Shown in pieces: positions 430-42,887 of a stretch of 64,000 nt of DNA. Under the pieces are notes generated by a model that saw only the letters and a list, made by a program, of their open reading frames with translations, was not told the DNA's origin and did not search any database. The stretch is taken from positions 10,957 to 74,956 of the forward strand of contig JAVCDE010000033.1 in assembly GCA_030765185.1 (NCBI GenBank), written 5' to 3'. Made by a program: the position numbers and the translations under genes. Position 1 is the stretch's first letter. Each line of letters opens with the position of its first letter. The DNA comes from Candidatus Aceula meridiana. GTDB taxonomy: Bacteria > Omnitrophota > Gorgyraeia > Zapsychrales > Aceulaceae.

Positions 430-927
430 TCAGGAAATCATTTCTTCTCTCCACTCTCTCTCAGCCTCAAACATCATTCTCTTTTTCAAAGAAAAATAAT
501 CAATAATAAGCTTACCTTCCAAATGGTCAATTTCATGCTGAAGAACCCTTGCCATCAACCCCTTGGCATTTATCTCTTGCGTTTCTCCTTTTTGATTTAA
601 CCCAGTTACAACAATTTCATAACTGCGCGATATTTTTATATAAACTTCTGGAATACTTAAGCACCCCTCCTTCAATGCATCGCTTCCTCTTTTATCAATT
701 ATTTTAGGATTAGCCAAAAATAGCGACCCTTCACCGATATCAGCCACAATAACTTGCTTCTGAATGCCAATTTGCGGACCCGCCAAACCTATGCCATCAA
801 AATGATGCATTATAAACAACATCTGCTGAAATAAATTCTTTTCCCTCTCCGTTATACGATTTACAGGCTGGCATTTTTTTCGCAAAATTATTTCAGGATA
901 TTTCTTAATTTCTAAAATATCCATCAT
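430..927 (-). CDS. def: Peptide deformylase
   Basis: 165 aa with the three canonical PDF motifs: GIGLAGPQIG, EGCLSIP and QHEIDHLEG. An ATGA overlap with the upstream radical SAM gene suggests translational coupling. Confidence 0.9.
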   Translation of the reverse strand: MMDILEIKKYPEIILRKKCQPVNRITEREKNLFQQMLFIMHHFDGIGLAGPQIGIQKQVIVADIGEGSLFLANPKIIDKRGSDALKEGCLSIPEVYIKISRSYEIVVTGLNQKGETQEINAKGLMARVLQHEIDHLEGKLIIDYFSLKKRMMFEAEREWREEMIS

Positions 928-1700
928 CCCTTGCCTCTCCTTTTTAAAGTATCTTTATCGCTAATAGACTTAATTTTATTTTTTTCCGCTTTATACACAG
1001 AAATTGTATTTAACCCATAAAAATAAGATTCTATTTGGTTTAATTCAAGCTCAGACAAAGGCTTTACCTTGCAAGGCCTAAGCGGTGTATTAATTTGAAC
1101 TTCAGAGGGATGAATTTCCCTAACGATTTCAGCAATTTCTTTCGCAGATTTCTTATTATCTTCGATAAACATAATTTGCAGAGCTAATTTTCCTTTATAA
1201 TTTTTCTTAAATTCTTTTATGCCAGAAATAATATGCTTAATCGTGATTGTTTCCAAAGGCCTATTGACTGTGTTAAAAATTCTCTGCGTAGAAGCATCAA
1301 GTTTTGCCATAACAAAATCTGCCGACAGCAAATCTTCTTGGACATCTTTTCTGTGCAACAAAGAAGAATTTGTAATCACGGCGATTTTCTCCCGCCGTAT
1401 TTGCTTTACCGCTTTTATCATTTTTCCCAAATTGCCAGCTAGCGTAGGCTCTCCGGCCCCAGAAAAAGTAATATAATCTATTTTCAAAGGAGGCAATAAA
1501 TCTATTTCTTCAATAATATCTCGACAATCAACAAAGGATTCTCGTTCATTGATTAATAAACTTTTCTTCTGGAGCTGGCAATAGCTGCAATCAAAATTGC
1601 AGACCTTCCTTCCCTTAAAAACAGGATCTACTCCCAAAGATCGGCCTAAACGCCATGACGGGACTGGCCCATAAATATACTTATAATTTTTATCACTCAT
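924..1700 (-). CDS. Radical SAM protein (small Fe-S oxidoreductase type)
   Basis: CNFDCSYC (CxxxCxxC) follows an N-terminal [15 protein letters not shown] motif typical of a small radical SAM family. It is part of the same tightly packed operon as apbC and the MinD-ferredoxin genes. Confidence 0.65.
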
Positions 1701-2520
1701 TTTCTAAACTATTAATAACTCTTTTAACAATATCATCCATACGACATGCTGAAAAATCATTACGGTTAAATTGAACAAAAGGTTTCCCGGCATCACCTTG
1801 CTTCACAATTTGAGAATCTATAGGAATGCGTCCTAAATAAGGAACTTTTAAATCCTCCGCCGCTTTTTCTCCTCCCCCTTGCCCAAATATCTCAATAGAT
1901 TTCTCGCAATGTGGACAAATAAAACCACTCATATTCTCAATAATTCCAAGAACAGGAACGTTAATAAATTTTGCGAATAACACACTTTTTCGAGAATCTA
2001 AAATAGCTACGTCCTGAGGAGTCGTCACAATAATGGCACCGCTTATCTGAGAAATGAGCTGGCAGACACTCAAAGGCTCATCCCCTGTCCCAGGGGGAGA
2101 ATCAATAATTAAATAATCTAAATCTCCCCAATCAACATCACTTAAAAATTGCTCAATCATCTTCATCTTAAGCGGCCCTCTCCAAATAATCGGCTGATCC
2201 TTGTCTTCCATTAACATCGAAATACTCATCGCTTTTAAATTCGGCAACACCAAGCATGGCTGTATTTGTTCATCCAGTGTTGAAATCTTTACATCTTCAA
2301 TTCCTAACATTTTTGCTATATTGGGTCCATGGATATCTACATCTAAAATACCAACACTGTTCCCCTGGCTAGCCAATTCATAGGCAAGATTAACAGCTAC
2401 CGTAGTTTTGCCAACTCCTCCCTTGCCACTCATAACAATAATTTTTTGTTTTATCCGCTGCATTTTCCCTTGAAGGCGTTTTTCTTTAGAAATTTCTTTT
2501 TTTTCATCAACTTTTTGCAT
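1693..2520 (-). CDS. apbC: Mrp/NBP35/ApbC family Fe-S cluster carrier ATPase
   Basis: Deviant Walker [22 protein letters not shown] plus the C-terminal CPHCE...GQGGGE Mrp signature. The ORF-track start at 2691 would overlap the upstream gene by 164 nt and add a Lys-rich low-complexity tail. An internal Met at 2520 (or 2463) is more plausible; which of the two is uncertain. Confidence 0.8.
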
Positions 2521-2527
2521 TTTTTTC

Positions 2528-3397
2528 CTAAATCTTTTGAATTTTTTCCCAAATTTTCTTAAAAGGCTCTGCAACCTCCTTATCAGGGTGCTCAGTGACG
2601 CTTTTGCGCTGCGTAACACAATCAACAATACGTCTATCAAACGGAATTTTTCCGACAACTTCAATTCCATCTTGTTTAGCAAAACTTTCAATTTTTTGCG
2701 CCATGTCGCTATTTAAATCAAACTTATTAATAACGATCTTAACAGGAACCTGAAAATGTTTCGCAACTTTAATGACTCTTTTCGCGTCATGAATTCCTGA
2801 AAGGCTTGGCTCAGTTACCACAATGGCGCAATCCACATCTGACAAAGACGCGATCACCGGACATCCTATCCCCGGAGCGCCATCGGTGACAACCTTCTCA
2901 CTTTTACCTTGGTTGGCAAGTTCTTTGCCCATTTGTTTAACAGTTGATACCAACTTGCCGGAATTTTCTTCGGCAACGCCCAGCTTGGCATGAACAAAAG
3001 GCCCAAATCTCGTCGATGACACAAACCAGTCTCCGGATATATTTTCTTGCATTTCAATCGCGCTGTGCGGGCAAGCTAAGGCACAAAACCCACATCCTTC
3101 GCAGGATATCGGATCAACAACATAAATGCCGTTAAGCTTGTCTTCCGCAATAGCAGAAAACCGGCAAAGCCCTTCGCAAAGGCCGCATGATTTGCATAAA
3201 TCTTTATTAATAACAGCTGTTTTTCCGCTTCGAAATTCATGTTTTTCTTCAACCTGCGGATTTAAAATTAAATGCAAGTTGGCGGCATCAACATCGCAAT
3301 CAGAAAAAACCGCGTTTTTTGCCAATGACGCAAAAGCCGCTGTCAAAACTGTCTTACCTGTCCCACCTTTTCCACTGATAATTAAAATCTGTTTCAT
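2528..3397 (-). CDS. MinD/ParA-family P-loop ATPase with inserted 2x[4Fe-4S] ferredoxin domain (paralog 1)
   Basis: SGKGGTGKT deviant Walker A. Two Cys clusters, [11 protein letters not shown] and [12 protein letters not shown], are inserted in the ATPase fold. The start was moved to [12 protein letters not shown] at 3397, which forms an ATGA stop/start overlap with the upstream paralog. Confidence 0.75.
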
Positions 3398-4233
3398 ACG
3401 GCAACCTTTGGTTGAATTTTTTCCCATAACTCTTTAAAAGCTTGTCGAAAAGAAGGCAGTGCCTCAACAATAAAATCACCCCTAGAATAAACTTCAGCAA
3501 TTTCTTTTTGAAAAGGAATTTTCATCAAAATTTCAATCCCATTTTTCTGACAAAAATCTTCTGTTTCCTGATTACCTAAATCCGATCGATTAATAATAGC
3601 TCCAAAAGGAATATTAAGTTTACGCAAAACCTCAACACTAAGCACAAAATCATTAAGCCCAAACGGTGTTGGCTCCGTCACTAAAATCACAAAATCGCTT
3701 CCCTTAATTGATTCAATAACCGGGCAGCTTGTTCCTGGCGGGGCATCAATAATCGCCACCATATCAGGACGAATATGTTCTTTAACCCTGCGGATAACCG
3801 GCGGCGCCATGGCCTCTCCAATCTTCATCCGCCCGGAGATAACATCGACATGAAGGCTTTCTCCTGTGGTGACAACGCCTATTTCTTGTTTTTCTTCGAC
3901 AATCGCGCCATGCGGACAAAAATACGAACACGCCCCACACCCGTGGCAAAGCTGAGGAAAAACAAGATGTTTTTTTCCAACAACAGCAATCGCGTTATAA
4001 ACACAAACTTCCTGACACTTGCCACACAACTGACATTTAGAAACATCTGCCTTTGGCACAAGCTTAAAAACTTTTTCTTCTTTCTTAATTTGCGGTTTTA
4101 AAAAAAGATGAGCATTAGGCTCTTCGACATCACAATCTAAAAGCTGACATGGAAAATCTAAAGACATCGCGAGGTTAGTCGCGACAAGAGTCTTGCCGGT
4201 CCCTCCTTTACCACTAGCAACGGAAACAATCAT
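3394..4233 (-). CDS. MinD/ParA-family P-loop ATPase with inserted 2x[4Fe-4S] ferredoxin domain (paralog 2)
   Basis: [15 protein letters not shown] Walker A, with CQLCGKCQEVC and CHGCGACSYFCP ferredoxin motifs. Tandem paralog of the gene at 2528..3397. Confidence 0.75.
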   Translation of the reverse strand: MIVSVASGKGGTGKTLVATNLAMSLDFPCQLLDCDVEEPNAHLFLKPQIKKEEKVFKLVPKADVSKCQLCGKCQEVCVYNAIAVVGKKHLVFPQLCHGCGACSYFCPHGAIVEEKQEIGVVTTGESLHVDVISGRMKIGEAMAPPVIRRVKEHIRPDMVAIIDAPPGTSCPVIESIKGSDFVILVTEPTPFGLNDFVLSVEVLRKLNIPFGAIINRSDLGNQETEDFCQKNGIEILMKIPFQKEIAEVYSRGDFIVEALPSFRQAFKELWEKIQPKVAV

Positions 4234-4248
4234 AAAAAACTTTCTCCT

Positions 4249-4854
4249 TTATTTTGCGCTTGCAACAAGCATCTTTTGATGCTTTGTTTCAGAAAACTGT
4301 GTTTGAAAATTCTTCTTATGAAGAAAGTACACCATGGCCTCCCAACAAACATTAAAAAATTTATGCTCACGCCCTTCATTTTTATGAAGACTGTCGATAA
4401 GACGCAAGCCTTCCTGATTAAAATCATTGATGACAATCGTAGCCTTTGGCTTACAAGCACGGATGATCTCTCTTAAAACACTAAACTGATTTTCCATGTG
4501 ATGAAAGCTGTTAACACAAAAAACTATATCAAAAATCCCGTCGCTAAAAGGCATATCAATCGCATCCGCAACCTGAAAATTAACTGCTTCGCTTAAGCCA
4601 AAGTCGGCAAGATTATTTTTAGCAATTTGCTGCTCTTGAGACGAAATATCAATACTTGTAAACTTATAGCCTTTTTGGGCCAAAGCTATTGCAAAATATC
4701 CTTTACCACTGCCGACTTCTAAAATTTTCCCTTTAATCGGCTCAACTTTCTCAATAACAATCGCACGCTCAGCATCAACATCATACCCAAACTTATCATA
4801 AAGAACCTTATGCTTTAAATGCTCTTGTATTGCGTTTGCAGATGCATTAGCCAT
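4249..4854 (-). CDS. Class I SAM-dependent methyltransferase
   Basis: Motif I ILEVGSGKGYFAIALA plus post-I and motif II (DIVFCVNSFHHM). The start was moved to MANASANA at 4854 to remove a 26-nt overlap with the NifX-like gene. Confidence 0.7.
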   Translation of the reverse strand: MANASANAIQEHLKHKVLYDKFGYDVDAERAIVIEKVEPIKGKILEVGSGKGYFAIALAQKGYKFTSIDISSQEQQIAKNNLADFGLSEAVNFQVADAIDMPFSDGIFDIVFCVNSFHHMENQFSVLREIIRACKPKATIVINDFNQEGLRLIDSLHKNEGREHKFFNVCWEAMVYFLHKKNFQTQFSETKHQKMLVASAK

Positions 4855-4855
4855 G

Positions 4856-5218
4856 CTATGCCCCTGACTTAGAATCAACATTAGAACCTTCGGATAAGGT
4901 CATTTCGCCTTTTTTATATTTCTCAACGGCTTCTAAAACAGTGCCTGTTGCTCCTAAACAAAATTTAATACCCGCAGCTTTTAGAGTATCGCTAGCGTTT
5001 GGCCCTATATTTCCTGTCAAAACACACTCAACGCCCTTGTCAGCCATCAGGCGTCCTGACTGGATGCCAACCCCACCGGTTCCTTGAGCATTCACGTTCT
5101 CAATAACCTCAAAATCCAGCGAATCAACATCCACGGCTAAAAAATATTTCGCGCGGCCGAAACGTGGGTCAACAAGTGCTTGTAAATTATCTCCCTGGGC
5201 AGTGACACAAACTTTCAT
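4856..5218 (-). CDS. NifX/NifB-C-terminal-like (dinitrogenase FeMo-cofactor biosynthesis domain) protein
   Basis: 120 aa with the MKVCVTAQGDNL...VDPRFGRAKYFLAVDVD pattern and later GVECVLTGNIGPNA..L...GIK, typical of the small NifX-like/DUF134 fold. Confidence 0.65.
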   Translation of the reverse strand: MKVCVTAQGDNLQALVDPRFGRAKYFLAVDVDSLDFEVIENVNAQGTGGVGIQSGRLMADKGVECVLTGNIGPNASDTLKAAGIKFCLGATGTVLEAVEKYKKGEMTLSEGSNVDSKSGA

Positions 5219-5241
5219 AAGACTATCCTTTTTTTTATTTG

Positions 5242-5625
5242 TTATTCGTGTGCGTGATCACACTCGGTTTTGTCAAGGCCATAGCCTTTACCCGAACGCG
5301 GCTCGCAAGGTTTATCATCGCTTGTTAAATTATTATTTAAAAACTGCGTAACGGCTTCATCGACAGAAACCTCAACACCCAAAATCGGAGTAATTTTCTT
5401 CTCTTCAAAAAGAATGCGCGCCCTCTCGCCCATACCGCCGGCAATAATATGGCTAACACCTCTCTGGCCTAAAAACTCCGGCAAAAAACCAGGATGATGG
5501 CCAGGATTATCAATAACCTCTTTGCTTACGACTTGTCCATCTTTAATATCAACTAAAGTAAAAAATGGGCATCTTCCAAAATGCGCGGATACAAAATCAC
5601 CATCTGTTGAAATGGCTATTTTCAA
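5242..5625 (-). CDS. NifX/NifB-C-terminal-like domain protein (paralog)
   Basis: 127 aa with MKIAISTDGDFVSAHFGRCPFFTLVDIKDG...SHIIAGGMGERA, the same fold family as the neighbour at 4856..5218. Confidence 0.65.
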   Translation of the reverse strand: MKIAISTDGDFVSAHFGRCPFFTLVDIKDGQVVSKEVIDNPGHHPGFLPEFLGQRGVSHIIAGGMGERARILFEEKKITPILGVEVSVDEAVTQFLNNNLTSDDKPCEPRSGKGYGLDKTECDHAHE

Positions 5626-5650
5626 AACAACCTCCTTAAATTAACTATTT

Positions 5651-6025
5651 TTATCCTTTAGACTTTTTTTCAGCTTCTAAATGCTTGATGTCGTGCTGAA
5701 CAACATCCATTTGCTGCTTTAACATTTCAGCTTGCATTTTAAGCGTTTCAAGTTCTTGGCCGGACACTGGTACCTGCTGAGGATATCCTCCTTGCGCTCT
5801 AGCCCCTAATCCTAATCCTCGACCAAACCCCTGGCCTCTTCCTCGGCCTAAGCCCATGCCTAATCCTCGGCCTAAGCCCATGCCTAATCCTCGGCCAAAA
5901 TAAGGTGCTTGTGCAGCTTGAGGGCCGCCTTGAGAATCTTTTGGGTTAGGAACAACACAGTTTCCCATTCCCCATCCTGTCATTGGGCCCACTCCTTGAG
6001 GGCCTCTTCCATCTCGTGCTGGCAT
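5651..6025 (-). CDS. DUF5320-family protein (Gly-rich N-terminus, coiled-coil C-terminus)
   Basis: Starts MPARDGRGPQGVGPMTGWGMGNC, a typical DUF5320 N-terminus, then Gly-rich GRGLGMGLGRG repeats and a C-terminal coiled coil. A strong RBS (AAGGAGG) precedes the ATG at 6025. The ORF-track start at 6070 would overlap fur. Confidence 0.6.
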   Translation of the reverse strand: MPARDGRGPQGVGPMTGWGMGNCVVPNPKDSQGGPQAAQAPYFGRGLGMGLGRGLGMGLGRGRGQGFGRGLGLGARAQGGYPQQVPVSGQELETLKMQAEMLKQQMDVVQHDIKHLEAEKKSKG

Positions 6026-6038
6026 AACATACCTCCTT

Positions 6039-6500
6039 TTATTTAGATTGACATTGACCACAGATACCATAAAAATGAATAATATGGTCCTGAATTTGAA
6101 ACTTATATTTTTTACTTAAGCCTTTTTCAATTTTTGACAAAAATTCTTTTTCAGCATCCATAAAATCCGCGTAATCAATAACTTTTTGGCACTTCTGGCA
6201 AACGAGATGATGATGATGTTCTGCGCCGCTCTCACTCTCAGATAATTCATAATTTGCTTTACCATCTCCAAAATTAAATTTAGACACAGTGCCCATATCT
6301 ACTAAAAGTTCAAGGTTTCGATAGACCGTAGTCAAGCCGATATTAGAATATATCTTATGAACAGAAAAAAAAATATCCTCAGCGCTTAGATGTTTTTTGG
6401 ATTTTGCTAAAACACCTAGGATTAATTCCCGGGGTTTTGTAAACCGGTATCCGCCTCCCTGAAACTTTCCCCTCCAACATTGAGATCCTCGAGTCCTCAT
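6039..6500 (-). CDS. fur: Fur-family metal-responsive transcriptional regulator
   Basis: Winged-helix N-terminus plus HHHHLVCQKCQKV and FYGICGQC metal-site motifs. The start was placed at MRTRGS (6500), which has an AAGGAG RBS. The ORF-track N-terminal extension is hydrophobic and runs across the Fur box. Confidence 0.8.
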   Translation of the reverse strand: MRTRGSQCWRGKFQGGGYRFTKPRELILGVLAKSKKHLSAEDIFFSVHKIYSNIGLTTVYRNLELLVDMGTVSKFNFGDGKANYELSESESGAEHHHHLVCQKCQKVIDYADFMDAEKEFLSKIEKGLSKKYKFQIQDHIIHFYGICGQCQSK

Positions 6501-6517
6501 AAAAATATTCTCCTTAT

Positions 6518-6538
6518 TGATAATGATTGTCATTATCA
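6518..6538 (-). promoter_or_regulatory. Fur box (21-bp palindrome TGATAATGATTGTCATTATCA) just upstream of fur
   Basis: Read directly in the sequence. It matches 17 of 19 positions of the classical Fur-box consensus GATAATGATAATCATTATC and is a near-perfect inverted repeat. It lies 18 nt upstream of the fur start codon. Confidence 0.7.
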
Positions 6539-6603
6539 ATATAGAACATAAAAGGCCATTTGTCAAATAATTTAATTTTGGTAAATAGGGTTTAGGTGAC
6601 TCT

Positions 6604-6728
6604 CAGATGAGCTTAATTTTACGCCCGGAGATTTTCAGGCGCTTTTGAATAAAAAGCACAATCGCCTTTGGATAGAGCTTGTGCTCTAGCTTGTGGATGC
6701 AGACTTCAAGAATTAAAGATATTTTCAA
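6604..6728 (-). pseudogene. Degenerate duplicate of the purN 3' end (remnant fragment)
   Basis: The minus-strand translation LKISLILEVCIHKLEHKLYPKAIVLFIQKRLKISGRKIKLI* matches the C-terminus of the intact purN at 8228..8350 (LKTLESRIHKLEHKLYPKAIQLFSQGRLKIFGRKIILR*). The two have the same length and stop position and about 70% nucleotide identity. The fragment directly abuts the FG-GAP gene stop codon. Confidence 0.6.
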
Positions 6729-6730
6729 AT

Positions 6731-8038
6731 CTATTCAATAGCAGGCTTCTTTTGTACATTATGCTTTTGAATAATATTTTTATATATATAAACTGCTCCA
6801 GAAAATGGACCGCTTGCCCAGTCATGAGGAGCTCCTGCGACAAAATGCTTTTCAGACAAAGAGACAGAAGAACCAAACATATCTCCCGGGAAGTCTGTAG
6901 ATTGTCTTGTTACCTCATGCCAATTTTCAACGTGTCTCGCAAAAATAGATGCTTCCCTAGATCCAACAATAGCATAATTTCCAGAGATAAAAACTGACTG
7001 CCCAAAATTATCATCGCCGCTATTTGGCAAAAATGTCGTCTGCGCTATCCATTCTGTACCGTTTCGCTTATAAATATACGCTGCTCCGTGAGGATTGCCG
7101 CCATTCATTCCAAAGGGCGTGCCAACGATTAAATAATCACCTGAAATAGCGCATCGTAAATGCGTATAGCTATTCCAAAGATCGGTTATCTGTGAATGCA
7201 AAGCCCAAACAGCTGCGCTTCTCTTGTAAATAATCACCTTGTCAACACCACTCGCTACACCTGCCGCAACATAGTCTCCTGAAATAGAAATTGAACTTCC
7301 AAGCACCATGTCCATCGAGCTGCCAGAAAGTAATTTTGCATCTTCACTCCAATTGCCAAGGGCATCTCTTTTAAAAACATAGATAGCTCCATGCCATAGA
7401 TTCTTAGCAGGAGCTCCAACAATCGCGTAATCACCTGAGATCGCAACAGTAGTGCCGAACTCATCGTTTGTCTCTCCATCGCTAGCAAAAAGTTTTGATA
7501 TAAAATTCCAATTTCCAGAGCCATTTCGTTCATATATATATGCGGAACCAGACCTGTAGCCATGGATTCCATCGTCGTGATAAGCCCCAACAATAGCATA
7601 ATCGCCGAAAATCGCGACTGAAGTACCAAACGAATCTCCGTTGCCTCCATCGCAAGGAACAAGTTGCTTAACACAAACCCAACCCGTCCCGCTCTCATGC
7701 TCATAAATACGTGCAGACCCCGAAGAAATCCCAATGATATTATCTTGCGGCGCCCCAACAACAAAATAATCACCAGAAATTGAGACAGAGCAGCCCATCC
7801 TTGAGCCTTGGTCTCCAATAATTTTTGTTTCTGGAAAAACTATCCCAAAAGACCCATCCTTAGAAGGTATTGTTCCAGGTTTAATATTTGGGTTAGTGTT
7901 TCGGGAAAAAGATTTTAGAATGTCGCTGTCGGAAAAATACGTTGAAATTTTAGGAGCCAAAGGGGGCCCTTCACTACATAGCCCGTTTCCAGAAAGCGTA
8001 ATAAAAATAAACACTCCTAAAATAAGAATCTTTTTCAT
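6731..8038 (-). CDS. Secreted FG-GAP repeat protein (predicted 7-bladed beta-propeller)
   Basis: N-terminal signal peptide. Seven recurrences of the FG-x-SV-x-ISGDY-x-VGAP motif (SVSISGDYFVVGAP, SVAIFGDYAIVGAY, TVAISGDYAIVGAP and others), which is the FG-GAP signature. Confidence 0.7.
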   Translation of the reverse strand: MKKILILGVFIFITLSGNGLCSEGPPLAPKISTYFSDSDILKSFSRNTNPNIKPGTIPSKDGSFGIVFPETKIIGDQGSRMGCSVSISGDYFVVGAPQDNIIGISSGSARIYEHESGTGWVCVKQLVPCDGGNGDSFGTSVAIFGDYAIVGAYHDDGIHGYRSGSAYIYERNGSGNWNFISKLFASDGETNDEFGTTVAISGDYAIVGAPAKNLWHGAIYVFKRDALGNWSEDAKLLSGSSMDMVLGSSISISGDYVAAGVASGVDKVIIYKRSAAVWALHSQITDLWNSYTHLRCAISGDYLIVGTPFGMNGGNPHGAAYIYKRNGTEWIAQTTFLPNSGDDNFGQSVFISGNYAIVGSREASIFARHVENWHEVTRQSTDFPGDMFGSSVSLSEKHFVAGAPHDWASGPFSGAVYIYKNIIQKHNVQKKPAIE

Positions 8039-8227
8039 TATATTTTCCTCTCATGATTTTGCGCTATTATTAATTTAAAAACTATTATAAACGTGGGTTC
8101 TCGTTCTATTTTTATTAATAAAAGTATAACATATATTTTATCTCTTGCCCAAAATAGACAAGGTTTAGAGAAAAATCGAACATATCCAAAATATTGGAAC
8201 ACAATGACTTATAAAATTTTAGCTGAT

Positions 8228-8827
8228 TTATCGAAGGATTATTTTCCGCCCAAAAATCTTGAGACGTCCTTGGGAAAAAAGCTGGATGGCTTTTGGGTAA
8301 AGTTTGTGCTCTAGTTTGTGGATTCGGCTCTCAAGTGTTTTGAGGGTATCTTGGGGGCGGATGATGACAGGCTCTTGTAAAATGATAGGCCCATGGTCGA
8401 CTTTCTCGTCAACAAAGTGCACGGTCACGCCAGTAAGCTTTGCTCCATAATCAAAGGCATCTTTAATGGCATGCGCGCCTTTAAATGACGGCAAAAGCGC
8501 AGGATGAATATTAAGGATCTTTCCTTTATAAGCCTTAACAAAATAAGGCGATAAAATGCGCATATATCCGGCCAAGACAATAAAATCAATTTTAAAATCT
8601 TTAAGCTCACGGATAACGGCTTTATCAAAGGCCTCGCGGGTCTTAAATTTCTTTGGGTCAACAACCGTTACCGGAATGCCTGCCTTTAATGCGCGCGTTA
8701 AGACGTAAGCTTTTTTCTTATCAGAAACCACAAGACCAAGCTGTGCTTTAATTTTTTTAGACTTTACGGCAGAAATAATCGCCTGTAAGTTTGTCCCGTT
8801 GCCGCTTGCTAAAACTGCAAATCTCAT
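8228..8827 (-). CDS. purN: Phosphoribosylglycinamide formyltransferase
   Basis: MRFAVLASGNGTNLQAII start, HPALLPSFKG and DxGPII motifs, 199 aa. Confidence 0.9.
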   Translation of the reverse strand: MRFAVLASGNGTNLQAIISAVKSKKIKAQLGLVVSDKKKAYVLTRALKAGIPVTVVDPKKFKTREAFDKAVIRELKDFKIDFIVLAGYMRILSPYFVKAYKGKILNIHPALLPSFKGAHAIKDAFDYGAKLTGVTVHFVDEKVDHGPIILQEPVIIRPQDTLKTLESRIHKLEHKLYPKAIQLFSQGRLKIFGRKIILR

Positions 8828-10110
8828 TTATTTTCTCCGTTAACCGGTAAAAGCTCATTTTGCTTTTTGTATTGTAGCAGTCCAAAGAGCCCAACAAAAG
8901 CAAAAAGACACCCGACCCCGATTAAAATTTTAAAATTCTCGACCTTCAAATTTTCAGAAAGATGCGCGCTTAAAAACATGGCCATAAGAAACCCTAAATG
9001 CATGACGACTTCCAAAGCGCTAAAAACACGCCCTCTCATTTCATCTCGGCTAACCTCATGAACAATGGTGTTCGCTGCAATAAAGACCGGGCCGGTCACA
9101 AGCCCGACGAGAAACGTAAGCGCTGCGGCCACCGGAAGCTGCGCAAAACGATGAAGAATGGTGGCAAATGCCACCATGGATATTCCGCCTAAAATTAAAC
9201 AAACAAAAATCGTTTTAAAACGCGAGGCTTTTTGTCCAAAACGGCCATAGGCAATCGCACTCGTCAGAAGCCCAAGCCCTAAAACAACGGCTAAAATCCC
9301 AAGGTCCCGGGTAACGCTTTGAAGCGATTCCTGGATAAAAACAATAACAACAACATAAATCGCCCCTGCGGCTGCAAACAAAATAAACATCATCGTGGTC
9401 ACAAAACGAATTTCGCGATGCTTAAAAAAATAGACTATCCCCTCTTTAATTTCGTCAAACAGAGACTTCCTTAAAACTGTGATAATCTTTCTTCCTTCCT
9501 CGGCTAACTTGTGCGTATCCACATAAAAATTAATTTTCTGAGTCATCGAAACCACAAGAATTCCTGAAATAAAAAATGTGACTGCATCCCAAATGAAGCC
9601 GCCGCGGGGGCCTGCTTTCTCGACTAAAAGTCCGCCAAAGGCGCAACCAAAAGCAAAAGCCAACATGCCCGTCATTGACACAAGAGAATTCGCCATCAAA
9701 AGCCCTTTTTCGTCAACTAAATCCGGAATAATCGACATCTTGGCCGGAACATAAAAACGGCTTAAACAAAAAATAAGAAAAACAACCGCGTAAATGGGCA
9801 CCATTGATTCCCAATAAATAAAAATAAACGGAATCGTCAAAACCAAAAGACCACGCAGAAAATCGCAGATAAAAAGAGTTTTTCTCCTGTCCCAGCGATC
9901 TACATACGCGCCGGCAATAGGGCCGACTAAAAAAACAGGGATAATCGTAAAAGATAGGAGCTTGGCAAGCCCCACCGTTGAGCCGGGTGTGCGCGCGGCA
10001 ATCAGGCCGATTAAAGCCATTTGGTTGATGCGGTCACCAAATTGAGAGATAATTTGAGCCAACCACAACCTTAAAAAATTTTTATTTTTAAAACTTTCGA
10101 GGACTGACAT
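8824..10110 (-). CDS. MFS transporter
   Basis: 428 aa with 12 predicted TM segments and an MFS-like GDRxxR motif near the N-terminus. ATGA overlap with purN. Confidence 0.7.
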   Translation of the reverse strand: MSVLESFKNKNFLRLWLAQIISQFGDRINQMALIGLIAARTPGSTVGLAKLLSFTIIPVFLVGPIAGAYVDRWDRRKTLFICDFLRGLLVLTIPFIFIYWESMVPIYAVVFLIFCLSRFYVPAKMSIIPDLVDEKGLLMANSLVSMTGMLAFAFGCAFGGLLVEKAGPRGGFIWDAVTFFISGILVVSMTQKINFYVDTHKLAEEGRKIITVLRKSLFDEIKEGIVYFFKHREIRFVTTMMFILFAAAGAIYVVVIVFIQESLQSVTRDLGILAVVLGLGLLTSAIAYGRFGQKASRFKTIFVCLILGGISMVAFATILHRFAQLPVAAALTFLVGLVTGPVFIAANTIVHEVSRDEMRGRVFSALEVVMHLGFLMAMFLSAHLSENLKVENFKILIGVGCLFAFVGLFGLLQYKKQNELLPVNGENK

Positions 10111-10155
10111 ATAAAATTATTTTATCATTTTGTAAAAATTGCGGACATAAAAATT

Positions 10156-11916
10156 CTAGTTATTTTCTAAAAGCTCAAGATCTTCATAGCAGCGATGGGC
10201 CTCTTCTTCCCTGTTAAGGATGCCATACGTTGAACAAAGATTAAAAAGGGCGTTTCTTAAACCGGGATCAAGCGACAAGGCCTTCTTGTATTTGGCGATA
10301 GCTTCCTCGTGTTTATCTGTCTTCGAATACACAACGCCCATGCTGTAAAGAAGCTGAGCATTGTTGGGTTCTTTTAATAAACGCTTTTGATATCCTTCCA
10401 TGACTCGCCGATAGCCCAGTTCACGATTAGAATCAAAAACCGGCCGTAAGTCAGAAGGGTCTTGGACCTTTTCAAGCTCAGCTAAACCCTCCCAGTAGCG
10501 TCCCTGGTCAATTAAACTTGCCCCAAGGCCTATCAAAGAACGCATGTTCTTTTCATCGTAAGAAAGGGCCGCACGAAAATGTTTTTCGGCCTGCTTAAAG
10601 CTTCCAAGCTTTGCATATCGAAATCCTAGAGAAGCATGAATACGGGCATTAAACGGCTGATACCTTAGGGAACGCTTTAGCATCGCTGCCTCGTTTACGG
10701 CATGAAGATTTTGTTCAGCTGTTATCATGCTTAAGAAAATAACCCAACCTAAAAAACAAAGGCGTGAAGCTAAAGGTGAAACGAGTTTTCTTGATGTTAT
10801 CTTCTTGTAGGCCTGACGAAGCCCTAGCACCACAAGTGCCAAAAGCCCCACCGCCGGCATATAGAAAAAATGCTCACTTGCCATAATGTATCCGGCCTGT
10901 GGCCGCAACGGGAAAACCTGAGAAACAGGAAACACCGCAAGTGCTGCAAAGCTCATAAAAAATAATACTCGACGAGAAAACCGCTTATAAAATTTTGCTA
11001 AAACAAATAAGAATCCTCCCCACCCTAACAGAGTCGCCACCGCCTGCACATTGAAAAAACTTCTGAAAACCGGTTGTAGCCGATCCGGGTGTAGATCAAC
11101 AGGGAGAATGAGAATACGGAAATATGTAAAAAGCGCCCGCCAAAAAGTGATAATTCCGAGGAAGAAGTCTTGCGCGGCTAATGTGCTTGGCAGGCGGACA
11201 ATGCCTAAGATTTTGCGCACACTAAGATAAAAAACAACAACACCGGCAAAGCCAACGAGCGGTTTGGACAAGCGAATCAAATTTCTTTTTTGATCTTTGC
11301 AAAAGAAAAAATTGTACGCCAAGAGCACAGCCGGGAGCATAATCGCGGACTCTTTCGATAAAAGTGCTAGGGCAAAACAAAGTACAGCGAGAATGTAATA
11401 GAGCGCCTTCCTCCTTTTTTGAAAAAGAACGTAAAATAAAAACGTGGCTAACTGAAAAAGAGCGCACAACAAAATCGAGCGTCCGGCAATGTTTGAAACA
11501 GCCTCAGTGTGAACCGGGTGCAGCATAAATAAAAAAGCAATCCAGAAAGCAATCATGGAATCTTTTAGAATCAAACTCATCAGGAGAAGAATAATAATGC
11601 TCGTCGCTAAGTGCAGAATAACATTTGTCAGATTAAACGCCACCGGGTTAAGCCCGAAGAAGTGATTCTCGACAGCAAAGCTAAATGTCACTAAAGGACG
11701 GTAATAAGTATTTCTTAAAAAGAATGACTGGGCGAATGCCTTTGACGCATGGTTAAAGTTTCTAACATAAGGGTTTTCTAGAATAGAAAACTGATCATCG
11801 AGGACTTTAAATGAAGATGCCAGCATAAAGGAATAGAGAATAAAACCAACAACTAAAAGGATAATAATCTTAAGGAATAGGCTTGAAGCAATGTAGGAAG
11901 AGAATTTTTTTATCAT
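10156..11916 (-). CDS. Polytopic membrane protein with C-terminal TPR repeats (PMT/TMTC-like GT-C architecture)
   Basis: About 11 N-terminal TM helices are followed by about 200 aa of TPR-like repeats (AEKHFRAALSYDEKN..., EEAIAKYKKALSLDP). Confidence 0.5.
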   Translation of the reverse strand: MIKKFSSYIASSLFLKIIILLVVGFILYSFMLASSFKVLDDQFSILENPYVRNFNHASKAFAQSFFLRNTYYRPLVTFSFAVENHFFGLNPVAFNLTNVILHLATSIIILLLMSLILKDSMIAFWIAFLFMLHPVHTEAVSNIAGRSILLCALFQLATFLFYVLFQKRRKALYYILAVLCFALALLSKESAIMLPAVLLAYNFFFCKDQKRNLIRLSKPLVGFAGVVVFYLSVRKILGIVRLPSTLAAQDFFLGIITFWRALFTYFRILILPVDLHPDRLQPVFRSFFNVQAVATLLGWGGFLFVLAKFYKRFSRRVLFFMSFAALAVFPVSQVFPLRPQAGYIMASEHFFYMPAVGLLALVVLGLRQAYKKITSRKLVSPLASRLCFLGWVIFLSMITAEQNLHAVNEAAMLKRSLRYQPFNARIHASLGFRYAKLGSFKQAEKHFRAALSYDEKNMRSLIGLGASLIDQGRYWEGLAELEKVQDPSDLRPVFDSNRELGYRRVMEGYQKRLLKEPNNAQLLYSMGVVYSKTDKHEEAIAKYKKALSLDPGLRNALFNLCSTYGILNREEEAHRCYEDLELLENN

Positions 11917-12008
11917 AAACGAATAACTTCAGCTTCGCTCGACTAAAATTAAATTAGCTTCGCAGAGCTTCTATTTATCTTTTCTTTAAACAAATTCAGA
12001 TAAATAAG

Positions 12009-12081
12009 AGCCGACGATCGGGATCGAACCGATGACCCCTTCATTACGAATGAAGTGCTCTACCAGCTGAGCTACGTCGGC
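12009..12081 (-). tRNA. tRNA-Thr (anticodon CGU)
   Basis: Cloverleaf folded by hand from the reverse complement: GCCGACG acceptor stem, GCTC/GAGC D-stem, anticodon loop TTCGTAA, T-loop TTCGATC. No encoded CCA. Confidence 0.8.
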
Positions 12082-12154
12082 AAACTTCATTAATCAAATT
12101 TAAAGCCTTTGGCTCACAAAATAACCCTCCTTAAGCTAAGGCTCGGAGGGTTAT

Positions 12155-12261
12155 CCGCTAATGGCGAAGTCCGCCGAAACATCAATGCTCCGACTTCCGG
12201 ATAATCCAAGGGTTCCCGCTTGTTGCGCCACCCCTCTTTTCGCGGGATGGCGCAATAGCGG
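12155..12261 (-). ncRNA. ffs: Small (4.5S-type) SRP RNA
   Basis: The minus-strand RNA contains AUCCGGAAGUCGGAGCA, which resembles the conserved SRP RNA domain IV (..CCGGAAGGAAGCAGC..). The 5' end (CCGCUAUUGCG) and 3' end (CGCCAUUAGCGG) can pair. Length is about 107 nt, between two tRNAs. A 10-bp stem-loop followed by a short T-run (12121..12154) lies downstream. Called by eye only. Confidence 0.55.
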
Positions 12262-12269
12262 ATAAAAAG

Positions 12270-12342
12270 TGCCGAGAGGCGGAATTGAACCGTCGACGCA
12301 AGGCTTTTCAGGCCTTCGCTCTACCAACTGAGCTATCTCGGC
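12270..12342 (-). tRNA. tRNA-Phe (anticodon GAA)
   Basis: Reverse complement is GCCGAGATAGCTCAGTTGGTAGAGCGAAGGCCTGAAAAGCCTT...TTCAATTCCGCCTCTCGGCA. Anticodon loop CTGAAAA, T-loop TTCAATT, with one mismatch in the T-stem. Confidence 0.8.
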
Positions 12343-12521
12343 AATAAACATTTTCTTAATTTTCAGGAAATACCCATTGTAGCAAAGTCTTAAAAGTTGT
12401 CAACCCATTCACCGATTTCCGGGCTTTAACCTGAAAATTGCTTAAAGTAACACTTCGCGGCTTAATTTTTCCTCAAACGTGCCAACCCATTCAGCTATCT
12501 TCAAAGACTTTCATTCAAATG

Positions 12522-12923
12522 CTACTGGATAACGCGATTTTTAACCTTAACCCAGACATCCTGGGCTGTCTTCATGCTAGGAAGCATATTTTTACGCGCC
12601 TTAACACTCATGCGCACCCACGAAGAGGACGCTTGAGATAAGTCTACCCAGACATAAGCACCCGCCACCCTTGCCTCAATTTGTCCGAGCTTGTAGTTTT
12701 TGGTTTGGATGGTTCCCATGATTGAAACAATTTCAACCGCAGCATCCCAAAGGGTATCATATTCAATTTGCGTTTCCCCTTCGACGGTATCTGGGCTTAT
12801 GGCATACCCGCCTAAGGCGCCCAAACCGCCGATAATCGCATAAAAACATCCGCTTAACGAAAACGCTAAAACTAACAACAAAGGTATCATAAAATACAAT
12901 CTTTGATTTTTTCCATTTTTCAT
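12522..12923 (-). CDS. Small lipoprotein (signal peptide + LSGC lipobox), function unknown
   Basis: MKNGKNQRLYFMIPLLLVLAFSLSGC lipobox followed by a soluble domain of about 110 aa. Confidence 0.5.
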   Translation of the reverse strand: MKNGKNQRLYFMIPLLLVLAFSLSGCFYAIIGGLGALGGYAISPDTVEGETQIEYDTLWDAAVEIVSIMGTIQTKNYKLGQIEARVAGAYVWVDLSQASSSWVRMSVKARKNMLPSMKTAQDVWVKVKNRVIQ

Positions 12924-12937
12924 AATTTATGCCCTCC

Positions 12938-14482
12938 TTAAACTTTTTCTTCTTGAGGTTTTTTTTCTATCTGCAAATCTGTCCGCCAAGAACGAGCAGC
13001 TATAAAAAGTGATACAACTAAAGCAACCAAAAGCCAATCTCGGCCAATCAAAATAACAGCTATCCAAGAATAATCGCCATAAGGTTTAGCTGACTCCTTA
13101 ACGATGTCATTAATTAGCAAAATGGCCAAGGCTGAAGGTGTTAAAAAACGAATGCAAAAATCCCACAGCTTACTTAACGTCCATTGAGCGCTGTGATTAA
13201 TGTGCTCACGTAACTTTTGAGATTTTAAAACCCAACCGACTAAAATACATTGTAAAATTCCAATGGTAACAAGCCCATAGTGTGTGATGAAGTGATCAAC
13301 AATATCAATCCAATATATTCCGGCATTAGTCGCAAAAAGCATACTGCCAAAAAATCCTGTGACGCACACCGCTGTTACAATCACACGGCGGGAATAATGA
13401 AACTTATCAATAATGGCCGAGGTAAACGCCTCAATTAAAGAAATCGCACTCGAAAGTCCCGCAATCACAAGTGTGCTAAAAAATAGAACACCAAATATCT
13501 TTGCAAAACCAGGCATCAAGCTAATCGCCTGCGGATAAGTAACAAAAGCCAAACCAATAGATTCTTTAACGACCTCAGAAACAGGCTTTCCTGTTGTCGT
13601 CGCCATATATCCTAAAACACCAAAGACCGCAAATCCCGAAATAAAAGAAAAAAGGCAATTGCCAACGCTAATCGTTAACGCATCCTTAACAATGTTGACC
13701 TTGCGCGGAAGATAAGAAGCATATGTCATCATAATGCCAAAGCCCAATGAAAGCGTAAAAAAGATTTGAGAAAACGCATCAATCCAAATCTGTGGTTTAG
13801 AAAGAAGTGAAAAGTCAGGAGTAAGATATTGCTTAATCCCAACTGAAGCCCCCTTCAAGCTCACACTCCAAAAAACCAAAATAAGAATAAGAACAAACAA
13901 CAAAGGCATAAAAATCTTATTTGCCTTTTCAATGCCTTTTTGAACACCAAAGAAAACAATAACCCAACATAATGTCCAAACCCCAAGCAATGAAGAAACA
14001 ATCGGCGTGCGCACATCACCGATTAAGCCCGGTGCTGCGCTGACCTGGAGATATTCATTAAAAAAAAAGTTGTTAGGGTCCATGCCCCAGGAAAGATTAA
14101 AAGAAAAGAAAACATAGCTTAAACACCACGCAATAATAACCGCATAATAAACCATAATGCCAAACATCGCGCAGTTAACAGACCACCACCCAGCCCATTC
14201 CCAATGACGGTCAACTTTAGCAAAACACATCGGCGTTGAGCCGCGCATCTTGTGCCCTAAGCCTAGCTCCAAGATCATCAACGGAACACCAACGACAAGA
14301 AGAGCAATGCCGTAAGGAATAAGAAAGGCCCCTCCCCCATTTTTATAACAAAGATAGGAAAAGCGCCAAATGTTTCCAAGGCCCACGGCTGAACCTAAAG
14401 CCGCGAAAATAAACCCCATCCGCGACCGCCATTGCGGGCGCGGATGATGAGATTCACTCAATTGTGTTGCCTTGTTCGTCAT
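12938..14482 (-). CDS. Neurotransmitter:sodium symporter (NSS/SNF) family transporter
   Basis: GSAVGLGNIWRFSYLCYKNGGGAFLIPY signature near the N-terminus and 12 predicted TM segments. Confidence 0.85.
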   Translation of the reverse strand: MTNKATQLSESHHPRPQWRSRMGFIFAALGSAVGLGNIWRFSYLCYKNGGGAFLIPYGIALLVVGVPLMILELGLGHKMRGSTPMCFAKVDRHWEWAGWWSVNCAMFGIMVYYAVIIAWCLSYVFFSFNLSWGMDPNNFFFNEYLQVSAAPGLIGDVRTPIVSSLLGVWTLCWVIVFFGVQKGIEKANKIFMPLLFVLILILVFWSVSLKGASVGIKQYLTPDFSLLSKPQIWIDAFSQIFFTLSLGFGIMMTYASYLPRKVNIVKDALTISVGNCLFSFISGFAVFGVLGYMATTTGKPVSEVVKESIGLAFVTYPQAISLMPGFAKIFGVLFFSTLVIAGLSSAISLIEAFTSAIIDKFHYSRRVIVTAVCVTGFFGSMLFATNAGIYWIDIVDHFITHYGLVTIGILQCILVGWVLKSQKLREHINHSAQWTLSKLWDFCIRFLTPSALAILLINDIVKESAKPYGDYSWIAVILIGRDWLLVALVVSLFIAARSWRTDLQIEKKPQEEKV

Positions 14483-26523: not shown

Positions 26524-27591
26524 TCACCGCATGCCGCTCAGCTCAATATTGAACTCATCTTTGCTATCTGCAGCTTCGCGGGCAGCATCTTCTTCAACAA
26601 GGTCATCTTTAACAAGCTGCACCAATGTTTGTTTAAAAGACTTCATCCCGAAAAGTTTTCCCTCATTAATAAAAGTCTGAATTTCCCTATTGCTCTGTTC
26701 ACGAATAAGACGCGCGATTGTAGGCGTTACAACCATTGACTCATAAGCCGGAACGCGACCATTGCCGTCTTTGCGAGGCAAAAGCCTCAAGGAAATAACC
26801 CCTTTAAGCAAAAGCGAAAGCTGCAAGCTCATCTCCGAATGCAAATGAGGCGGAAAAAAATTAATAATTCTTTCGATAGTTTGAACAGCATTATTAGTAT
26901 GAAATGTTGAGACAACCAAAACACCAAGTTCGGCCGCAGACAATGCCGCGCGCATGGTTGCTTCATCACGAATAGTCCCAATAAACAAAACATCAGGGCT
27001 TTGTTGCGTCACATGGCGTAAAGCTGTTGGATAAGAATGAAAATCAATTCCCATCTCTCTTTGATTAATAATACTTTGTTTGTCTTTAAATAGGAATTCA
27101 ACCGGATCTTCTAAGGTAACAATATGTTTTTCTTCGTTCTCGTTAATATAGTCAATCATGCTGGCGATAGAGGTTGTTTTTCCGTTACCGGCGGCTCCGC
27201 AAGCTAAGACAAGTCCTCTCTGTTGCTGACAAAGCAACTCGCACAACTCTTGAGGAAGATTCAACTCGTCAAAACTTTTTGTTTGATTCTTAACGTAACG
27301 GGCAACCAAGGTTGGCTGTGTCCTCTGCAAAAAGAGATTAATACGAAAGCGCCCCACCCCTGGATGGATATAAATAAAATCAATATCTAGATTCTTCTCA
27401 AAGAAGTCTCTCTGCGTCTTTTCCGCCAACAAAACACTAACAAGCTCCTTCATCTCAATCTCAGAAATTTGCGCATCGTCTAACCGAAAAATTTTCCCGT
27501 CAATACGGGCTCTTGGAGCGGCGTGCGCCCTTAAAAATAAATCCGAGGCCTCTTTTTCAACCATCATTCTAAAATATTTTTGCAGCTTCAT
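26524..27591 (-). CDS. pilT: PilT-family type IV pilus retraction (twitching) ATPase
   Basis: Walker A GAAGNGKTTS, His box and VVSTFHTNNAVQTIERII. 355 aa. Confidence 0.85.
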   Translation of the reverse strand: MKLQKYFRMMVEKEASDLFLRAHAAPRARIDGKIFRLDDAQISEIEMKELVSVLLAEKTQRDFFEKNLDIDFIYIHPGVGRFRINLFLQRTQPTLVARYVKNQTKSFDELNLPQELCELLCQQQRGLVLACGAAGNGKTTSIASMIDYINENEEKHIVTLEDPVEFLFKDKQSIINQREMGIDFHSYPTALRHVTQQSPDVLFIGTIRDEATMRAALSAAELGVLVVSTFHTNNAVQTIERIINFFPPHLHSEMSLQLSLLLKGVISLRLLPRKDGNGRVPAYESMVVTPTIARLIREQSNREIQTFINEGKLFGMKSFKQTLVQLVKDDLVEEDAAREAADSKDEFNIELSGMR

Positions 27592-42486: not shown

Positions 42487-42887
42487 GGAGAGATCTTTAA
42501 ATATTTAACAATTGTTTTATAGGTGGCAGAGCCGATACCCTCGACATCCTGAAGCTCTTGAAGGCTTTTAAATCCTTCCTTCTCGTTGCGATAAAAAATA
42601 ATTCTTTGAGCTGTTACCGGCCCAATGCGAGGAATTTTGACAAGGTCTTCTTGGCTTGCCTGGTTAATATCAATCTTACGATATATATGATCACTCTCTA
42701 AAACATTAACCATGTTCTTAATCTGAGGATTTGTTTTAAAAAGATAGTTTAAACAAGCACCTACGACAATAATCGCCGCCAAGCTAATGAGAACCGTGCG
42801 CTCTTCTTTGGTAAAATGAAACATCATGCAACAAGCTCCAATAACCAAGATACAAAACCCAAACAAATTCCAATAATCAGAAATCAA
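42483..42887 (-). CDS. comEA: ComEA-like DNA receptor (TM anchor + tandem HhH)
   Basis: DINQASQEDLVKIPRIGPVTAQRIIFYR...LQDVEGIGSATYKTIVKYL is the (HhH)2 signature. ATGA overlap with comEC. Confidence 0.8.
   Translation of the reverse strand: MISDYWNLFGFCILVIGACCMMFHFTKEERTVLISLAAIIVVGACLNYLFKTNPQIKNMVNVLESDHIYRKIDINQASQEDLVKIPRIGPVTAQRIIFYRNEKEGFKSLQELQDVEGIGSATYKTIVKYLKISP

Follow-up and report, generated by a model that had tools for sequence, protein, structure and literature searches.

Insertion into the 3′ end of a housekeeping protein gene is exemplified by e14/phage 21 in icd of Escherichia coli K-12, which leaves behind the C-terminal pseudogene icdC (PMC13626634, citing Hill et al. 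1989, PMC210168). A locus of comparable architecture is described here at purN of the uncultured bacterium Candidatus Aceula meridiana, an Omnitrophota genome from Ace Lake, Antarctica (PMC8542988), where two copies of the purN tail flank a gene for an FG-GAP repeat protein. The stretch analysed (hereafter the window) comprises 64,000 nucleotides, positions 10,957 to 74,956 of contig JAVCDE010000033.1 (assembly GCA_030765185.1), and records named for Ca. Aceula meridiana include proteins that match its PurN and FG-GAP products at 100% identity. Look-ups of the two proteins by exact sequence returned no record. As far as the account in PMC13626634 extends, purN resembles icd in that the insert occupies a housekeeping protein gene at its 3′ end, a substitute end supplied by the element keeps that gene functional, the displaced native end is left as a fragment at the far side, and the copies differ mostly by synonymous or conservative changes. 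The same account relates that recombination between the icd end copies gives chimeric genes, to which the mosaic purN tails can be likened. There e14 is presented as a 15-kb remnant of a prophage, equipped with an integrase and excised upon SOS induction, whereas the purN insert consists of one 1.3 kb gene plus promoter with no recombinase found, and target gene (purN) and host (an uncultured member of the Omnitrophota) differ as well.

Cis-mobilizable elements (CIMEs) and their tandem accretion at the fda 3′ end, in the ICESt1/ICESt3 family of ICEs (integrative and conjugative elements) of Streptococcus thermophilus, provide a further parallel, as outlined in PMC5704250 (citing Pavlovic et al. 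2004 and Bellanger et al. 2011). In that outline, CIMEs are devoid of integrase and transfer genes but remain bounded by attL and attR at a protein gene's 3′ end, and successive integrations at the gene-end att site give tandem arrays. The window insert likewise retains attL-like and attR-like repeats, and neither recombination nor transfer genes were found with it; accretion of this type, with two cassettes and three purN tails, is present in a relative of the window genome (lineage L081) and is not seen in the window itself. The streptococcal elements, according to the same outline, have known cognate ICEs that bear an integrase, and att repeats of tens of bp, whereas the purN repeats comprise 70–125 nt of coding sequence at 72–91% identity, and no integrase-bearing partner, that is, no ICE or integrative and mobilizable element (IME) with an integrase recognising the purN tail, was found in 180 loci or IMG/VR. 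By analogy with CIMEs, the purN inserts might be decayed descendants of ICEs or IMEs.

Tycheposon-built islands next to tRNA genes in Prochlorococcus (bioRxiv 10.1101/2020.12.28.424599) share with purN a small streamlined genome, repeated integration at one site in which newer elements push older ones outward, and partial target-gene copies and cargo that outlast the decay of mobility genes (bioRxiv 10.1101/2020.12.28.424599). Tycheposons differ in targeting tRNA genes, in including intact elements with tyrosine recombinases and in having demonstrated activity, whereas no intact element with a tyrosine recombinase was found at purN. A functional analogy, and nothing closer, links the locus to integrons, in which single-gene, mostly recombinase-less cassettes are stacked at one site between copies of a recombination site. 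At purN, in contrast, no IntI, attI or attC-like imperfect palindromes were found, the sequence repeated is a housekeeping gene's coding 3′ end, which shows no notable secondary structure, and the cassette has its own promoter.

Collectively, the phenomenon belongs to a known kind, in which attachment sites at gene ends leave displaced relics and att-flanked cassettes lack an integrase, while purN as the target gene and a phylum without an earlier description appear to be new, to judge from a limited literature search. In this lineage of Omnitrophota, the final ~40 codons of purN have probably served repeatedly as a recombination (attachment) site.

The duplicated purN end in Ca. Aceula meridiana

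The purN gene (phosphoribosylglycinamide formyltransferase; 8228–8827, minus strand) is intact, and its 199-residue product matches Formyl_trans_N (PF00551) over the full profile (positions 1–181 of 181; 217.8 bits, 1.2e-64). Its homologues are annotated as phosphoribosylglycinamide formyltransferase, and it is a predicted glycinamide ribonucleotide (GAR) transformylase. The last 40 codons and the stop form the live tail (8228–8350, minus strand), the left, attL-like copy of a direct repeat identified by repeat search and alignment. Beyond a 189-bp spacer (8039–8227, minus strand) lies the presumed cargo of the insertion (6731–8038, minus strand), a gene for a 435-residue protein with six FG-GAP_2 repeats (PF14312; 195.6 bits against a cutoff of 23, 1.2e-58), a hydrophobic, signal-like segment at the N-terminus and internal repeats spaced at 156–297 nt in the gene. 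The right, attR-like copy follows as a relic in the form of a 41-codon frame (6603–6728, minus strand), which opens with TTG 2 bases past the FG-GAP stop and closes with a stop codon in register with that of purN. The repeat pair thus encloses exactly one gene with its own predicted promoter, and purN remains full length despite the insertion, since the proximal tail copy completes the frame and resembles the PurN tails of other Omnitrophota.

The tail copy behind the FG-GAP gene, already recognised in a preliminary description of the window, is confirmed at the coordinates given there, on the minus strand. The live tail and the relic agree at 27 of 35 residues in an ungapped protein alignment, with zero indels from IHK through the stop, and tblastn within the window returns 26/32 (E 6e-12); the next-best six-frame match to the tail across the 64 kb reaches 10/35, and this six-frame comparison yielded no third copy. 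At the nucleotide level, local alignment gives 63/84 identities (75%; 8241–8323 against 6616–6698) and a repeat search gives 95 nt at 72% (8241–8335 against 6616–6710, at a spacing of 1625), in line with the roughly 70% first estimated. The differences are mainly synonymous, as expected if both copies once were real purN ends: the 13-codon core IHKLEHKLYPKAI contains 7 synonymous and 0 non-synonymous differences, and over 34 codons the proportions of synonymous and non-synonymous sites that differ (pS and pN) are 0.83 and 0.16. The relic alone has no Pfam match.

The position of the relic is equally informative. Its stop sits 37 nt before the −35 box of the fur promoter, the place expected for a displaced native purN end, which implies that purN and fur adjoined in an ancestor. 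An 858-bp assembly from a separate sample (L179) is 99.9% identical over the FG-GAP end, the relic and fur, which excludes mis-assembly of this junction. The relic is a scar rather than a gene, and the 41-codon open reading frame (ORF) should be annotated as a purN remnant.

The spacer between purN and the FG-GAP gene contains a predicted promoter (TGGGCA-17-TATACT at 8151..8123) and a predicted ribosome-binding site. It had been called markedly AT-rich; the low GC content (24.9%) is confirmed, but it is not exceptional in a set of 21 intergenic regions with a mean of 34 ± 8%, four others of which fall at or below 27%.

Occupancy of the locus in related Omnitrophota

The nearest other lineage is represented by four assemblies from different samples (L081–L084), with identities to the window of 82% for PurN, 92% for the MFS transporter, 73% for FG-GAP and 78% for Fur. 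L081 is collinear with the window, and the arrangement of FG-GAP, relic and fur is identical. Within L081 (JGI Ga0127405_1000018, 3556–9450), however, an extra block of ~4.3 kb between purN and FG-GAP carries a radical-SAM/SPASM gene, a methyltransferase and a YfhO-family membrane protein, so that the order in L081/L082 reads purN (tail copy c1), radical-SAM/SPASM, methyltransferase, YfhO, tail copy c2, spacer, FG-GAP, tail copy c3 and fur. This tandem array is present in the 4 assemblies. Copy c2 (7700–7773), after YfhO, has lost its 5′ half; copy c3 (9323–9448), between the FG-GAP orthologue (8001–9314) and fur, is the positional orthologue of the window relic. Copies c2 and c3 have 32 identical nt in common, and c1 and c3 are 83% identical over 109 nt. 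In the FG-GAP spacer, the proximal ~55–100 nt including TATACT align between the window and L081 (z 4.3), while the distal part is unalignable.

Each of 162 further Omnitrophota purN loci was searched with its own tail, and one more case emerged, in the distant lineage L144 (PurN 60%). There (JGI Ga0315279_10000037, 10400–12100), purN is followed by a nucleotidyltransferase of the Polbeta/NTP_transf_2 family, a HEPN gene and a truncated HTH_17 gene, which continues into a relic of the purN tail; the repeat extends over 98 nt at 91% with a 59-nt perfect block. The four relics (window, c2, c3 and L144) all span LYP to the stop and differ in their left boundaries. Three unrelated cargos therefore occupy one position at purN, each bounded by a tail copy that reaches from at least LYP to the stop. 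The layout shared with L081 shows that the insertion event is neither recent nor private to the window genome. Orthologues of the FG-GAP protein itself occur in L081 (73%) and L085 (60%), and other homologues, from many phyla, reach at most 46% (most 32–43%).

The interval between purN and fur varies accordingly in length and content. The genes for TPR-PMT, MFS and PurN are syntenic across many Omnitrophota, and purN has the fur operon downstream of it in L081, in L177 (GCA_028693815.1) and in Ca. Aceula lacicola (L008/L097 plus L175/L176). The interval measures 1.7 kb in the window, where it holds the FG-GAP cassette, and 6 kb in L081, with two cassettes; in L177 it spans 5.7 kb with a peptidase M16, a cytidine deaminase, a GH26 protein and a Na/H exchanger, and in Ca. 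A. lacicola about 14 kb, including an RND efflux system. Among the nearest PurN homologues the gene right after purN differs almost every time, and across 123 loci this first gene falls into 58 Pfam families. Thus, purN and the fur operon form conserved flanks, and the content between them differs in every relative seen. The metagenome-assembled genome (MAG) of Ca. A. lacicola also contains two TPR-PMT/MFS/purN loci (L008, JAVCCC010000005; L012, JAVCCC010000056), whose PurN copies are 72% and 70% identical to that of the window; the pair reflects a genuine duplication or else a mixed bin.

In the closest relatives, truncation or replacement frequently alters the PurN tail right after EHKLYPxxI (P0122–P0240; L008, L012, L167, L170), while more distant Omnitrophota retain the canonical ..LKIxGRKVKI tail. 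Because of these truncations and replacements, identity of the PurN body and identity of the tail are negatively correlated (rho −0.62), and the correlation is uninformative as to which copy in the window is native.

On the L085 contig (1–1931; ENA ERZ27316143 k141_180914), which ends before the left flank, a GH26-like gene stands 81 nt past FG-GAP; a gene of this kind sits within the purN–fur interval in other relatives. In L081, an AhpC/peroxiredoxin gene (10850–11542) between the NifX-like genes is absent from the window (between 5218 and 5242) and constitutes a second small indel in the fur region.

Age, mosaic structure and origin of the inserts

Comparison of the window with L081 dates the FG-GAP cassette relative to its surroundings. 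At four-fold degenerate sites the FG-GAP orthologues are identical at 100/148 positions (0.68; Jukes–Cantor (JC) distance about 0.42), and the ten flanking orthologues at 377/782 (0.48; JC distance about 0.87), a difference (Fisher p 1.5e-5) that is evenly spread along FG-GAP. Codon bias is not the cause, since the identity predicted from codon composition is alike for FG-GAP (0.36) and the others (0.30–0.37). The purN body and fur, immediately beside the cassette, show the backbone value, which places the exchange breakpoints within two stretches, of ~300 nt and ~230 nt, in which the tail copies lie. The lower four-fold divergence of FG-GAP indicates that the ancestor of the cassette is more recent than that of the genomes; the cassette is younger than the backbone. 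At the protein level the identity is 73%, and among the ten flanking orthologues only a methyltransferase (53%), DUF5320 (64%) and one CbiA paralogue (69%) fall lower. The FG-GAP protein therefore appears to evolve fast, as expected where diversifying or relaxed selection acts on a protein that is secreted or exposed at the surface.

The tail copies are mosaic. All pairs of the four full-length tails have pN/pS ratios of 0.2–0.3 with synonymous sites near saturation, and the two positional relics, in the window and L081, differ at 16/79 non-synonymous and 15/23 synonymous sites (pN/pS 0.31, Fisher p 1.5e-4), while the non-coding DNA beside them is unalignable. This combination argues that the relics are no ancient neutral remnants; their displacement came long after the lineages had separated, or recombination with live tails has refreshed them. 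Quartet site patterns divide along the tail, with 7 genome-wise sites (codons 4–20, 5′ half), 6 cross-wise sites (codons 16–40, 3′ half) and 3 position-wise sites; the cross-wise sites group the window live tail with the L081 relic and the window relic with the L081 live tail. Specifically, in the 3′ half the window live tail (..FGRKIILR*) resembles L081 c2 and c3 rather than the L081 live tail, and the window relic (..SGRKIKLI*) resembles the L081 live tail and that of the outgroup L166 (..QGRKIKL*). The two nearest PurN tails match the relic at 17/24 and 17/24 and the live tail at 16/24 and 14/24, and the L166 tail is 73.5% identical to the relic against 68% for the live tail, neither difference being significant. 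These comparisons weakly suggest that the relic may be the older, native purN end and that the live tail was perhaps brought in with the cassette; the mosaic is too short to assign tail halves to host or element. In the preliminary description, a shared arrangement with co-diverging copies in relatives was to mark an ancient fixed feature. L081 does share the layout of FG-GAP, relic and fur, but its copies are mosaic rather than simply co-diverging, and the cassette is younger than the backbone.

Under the proposed attachment-site reading, incoming DNA would have brought a homologue of the purN tail along with a promoter and the FG-GAP gene, and one reciprocal crossover inside the purN tail would have integrated the molecule; from this arrangement we infer a circular intermediate and a single crossover. 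The incoming tail would have become the working purN 3′ end (8228–8350), leaving purN intact, and the earlier tail would have been displaced to the far side of the insert (6603–6728), still beside its old neighbour, the fur promoter. The FG-GAP unit would then persist as an integrase-less cargo cassette between two tail copies, later insertions at the purN tail would stack more cassettes, as in L081, and recombination among the copies would shuffle and homogenise them. Candidate enzymes are a site-specific recombinase acting in trans, or RecA acting on about 100 bp of homology, the Campbell-type event raised in the preliminary description. Genes for DNA uptake in the window encode ComEC (Competence domain plus DUF4131), a ComEA-like HHH_3 protein and a T2SSE/PilT-like ATPase (40957–42887 and 26524–27591, minus strand); the presence of ComEA and ComEC makes uptake of related DNA, followed by RecA recombination on tail homology, a live alternative. 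The sole hint of an excisionase module is the truncated HTH_17 protein beside the L144 relic, which has an excisionase-type fold and scores 26.8 bits, below the cutoff of 27.

Several results weigh against this reading. No integrase, excisionase or transposase was detected inside or beside the three inserts (window, L081 and L144), and no recombinase Pfam match occurs in about 50 ORFs of the window; among the first genes after purN, the best 25 of the 58 families (123 loci) include no integrase. A crude regular expression for tyrosine-recombinase motifs, applied to 1.74 Mb of purN neighbourhoods, returned one truncated match, 6 kb from purN. IMG/VR contained no integrase-bearing occupant and no purN-tail attP by protein pattern, and a degenerate DNA pattern retrieved 3 contigs there, two with out-of-frame chance matches at the 3′ end of an uncharacterised ORF and one with a full purN. 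Contrary to the expectation that purN directly adjoins fur in relatives, no empty site was present among about 175 purN or fur loci, the search covering 80 genome loci, 80 metagenome loci and the contigs of the nearest PurN and Fur homologues. The FG-GAP cassette with its relic is confined to two lineages, the age argument rests on that one gene pair, and in L085 the FG-GAP orthologue is followed by the GH26-like gene without a relic. Copy c3 and the window relic are too conserved for neutral scars as old as the lineages, so that an extra assumption, late separate arrivals or gene conversion, is needed. Finally, the atypical codon usage or GC content at third codon positions (GC3) that had been anticipated for FG-GAP is not found: its GC content (0.418), GC3 (0.320, against 0.363 ± 0.040 for the window) and codon-usage distance (0.112, against a mean of 0.154) are ordinary for the window, which fits a donor from the same group.

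The principal alternative is a single ancient insertion that passed by vertical descent to the window lineage and to L081 and did not move again; occasional gene conversion from the live tail would keep the relics coding-like, and the low synonymous divergence of FG-GAP would be gene-specific. We regard this history as unlikely, though not negligible. A single blastn alignment of the two genomes runs collinearly through FG-GAP, relic and fur, with the same junction of FG-GAP stop and relic start; within each genome the full tails share synonymous states in codons 11–15, and the 32 identical nt of c2 and c3 look conversion-like. Yet the window copies form the most diverged pair (69–72%), so that conversion is not evident there, the cross-wise grouping of the 3′ halves requires exchange between lineages or a tail swap, and the four-fold contrast (0.68 vs 0.48, p 1.5e-5) is uniform along the gene and independent of codon composition. 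Another possibility, slightly less likely than vertical inheritance, treats the purN tail as an integrase-independent platform for cassette exchange among related Omnitrophota. Single-gene cassettes with their own promoter and a working purN tail would recombine within the ~100-nt tail, and tail copies would alternate between live and relic positions, so that selection on purN would keep relics fit to encode it. Such a platform would account for the relic pN/pS of 0.31, the swapped tail types, the young cassette and the failure to find a recombinase. Local duplication without a circle, whether by unequal crossing-over, by slippage or by homology-facilitated illegitimate recombination during transformation, with linear foreign DNA anchored in purN and joined illegitimately upstream of the recipient's tail, seems improbable. 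It would be compatible with the missing recombinase in and near the inserts, with ComEA and ComEC, and with the varying left boundaries of the relics (DTLK in c3, about EARIHK in L144, LY in c2); illegitimate recombination of this type normally deletes rather than duplicates recipient DNA, however, and a relic of at least LYP to the stop left by all three insertions with unrelated cargo is a regularity unexpected of illegitimate joins.

Two remaining explanations concern the relic itself. That the 41-codon frame is functional, encoding a small protein translated by re-initiation or acting as a cis element for FG-GAP termination or fur control, is very doubtful. The frame is open with a TTG start just behind the FG-GAP stop, the relics diverge with the low pN/pS already given, and no stop or indel has arisen in it while adjacent non-coding DNA became unalignable. 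Against these features stand an in-frame TGA just upstream in the window, a homologous frame in L081 whose sole start is a TTG 99 nt upstream, inside FG-GAP, the different stop position of c3, the lost 5′ half of L081 c2 and the absence of any relic upstream of fur in L175–L178. As a small gene the relic was rejected on the grounds that it has no conserved start codon and no Shine–Dalgarno sequence, and as an RNA element or terminator on the grounds of no Rfam match, a fold z of −1.8 and no predicted terminator. Chance similarity or mis-assembly, a general concern with a MAG, can practically be dismissed: the 27/35 match (E 6e-12) stands far above the next-best 10/35, the independent assembly agrees across the junction and the arrangement recurs in four assemblies of a relative.

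The attachment-site reading agrees with the insertion footprint proposed in the preliminary description, which is now supported by the variable interval, the relic at the fur promoter, the tandem array in L081 and the independent insertion in L144. The accompanying view of FG-GAP as an acquired accessory gene between purN and the fur operon is strengthened by its four-fold divergence, about half that of the flanks.

Genomic setting and significance

The minus strand carries every gene around purN, FG-GAP, the relic and fur, and 53 of the 55 long ORFs of the window. Upstream of purN lie an MFS transporter (8824–10110, minus strand; MFS_1, MFS_3) and a TPR/PMT_2 membrane protein (10156–11916, minus strand; Pfam TPR repeat families and PMT_2), followed by tRNA-Thr and tRNA-Phe (12008–12342) with no island alongside. 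On the other side, fur (6039–6500, minus strand; Pfam FUR 2.6e-31) is the first gene of the right-hand conserved flank, an operon in the order fur, DUF5320, two NifX-like genes, a methyltransferase and two CbiA/MinD-type Fe-S ATPases. The fur promoter region (6519–6566, minus strand) comprises TTGACA (6566–6561) and TATATT (6543–6538), 11/12 matches in a promoter scan, and a near-consensus Fur box, GATAATGACAATCATTATC (6537–6519, minus strand), the consensus being that of E. coli Fur. The Fur box overlaps this strong sigma-70-like promoter, and the overlap is kept in L081 (9553–9600), which implies autoregulation of fur. The DUF5320 gene (5651–6025, minus strand) has a tandem glycine-rich motif (GLGMGLGRG) and the most deviant codon usage among its neighbours. 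GC3 changes in a step at the purN tail (430–14482), from 0.39–0.47 in the upstream genes (purN, MFS, TPR-PMT and an SNF transporter) to 0.29–0.37 downstream (FG-GAP, the fur operon and on to 430).

The purN end represents a concrete hotspot, and a likely route, for the gain and swap of accessory genes in small-genome uncultured Omnitrophota. The cargos comprise a predicted secreted FG-GAP propeller in the window and, in relatives, a glycosylation-type cassette and a toxin-antitoxin pair. With it, purN joins the few protein genes that offer a landing site at the 3′ end, and the purN-tail repeats are usable as a marker that delimits islands in Omnitrophota MAGs. If it is true that the cassettes move without a recombinase of their own, the locus would constitute a simple natural gene-exchange system built on coding sequence.

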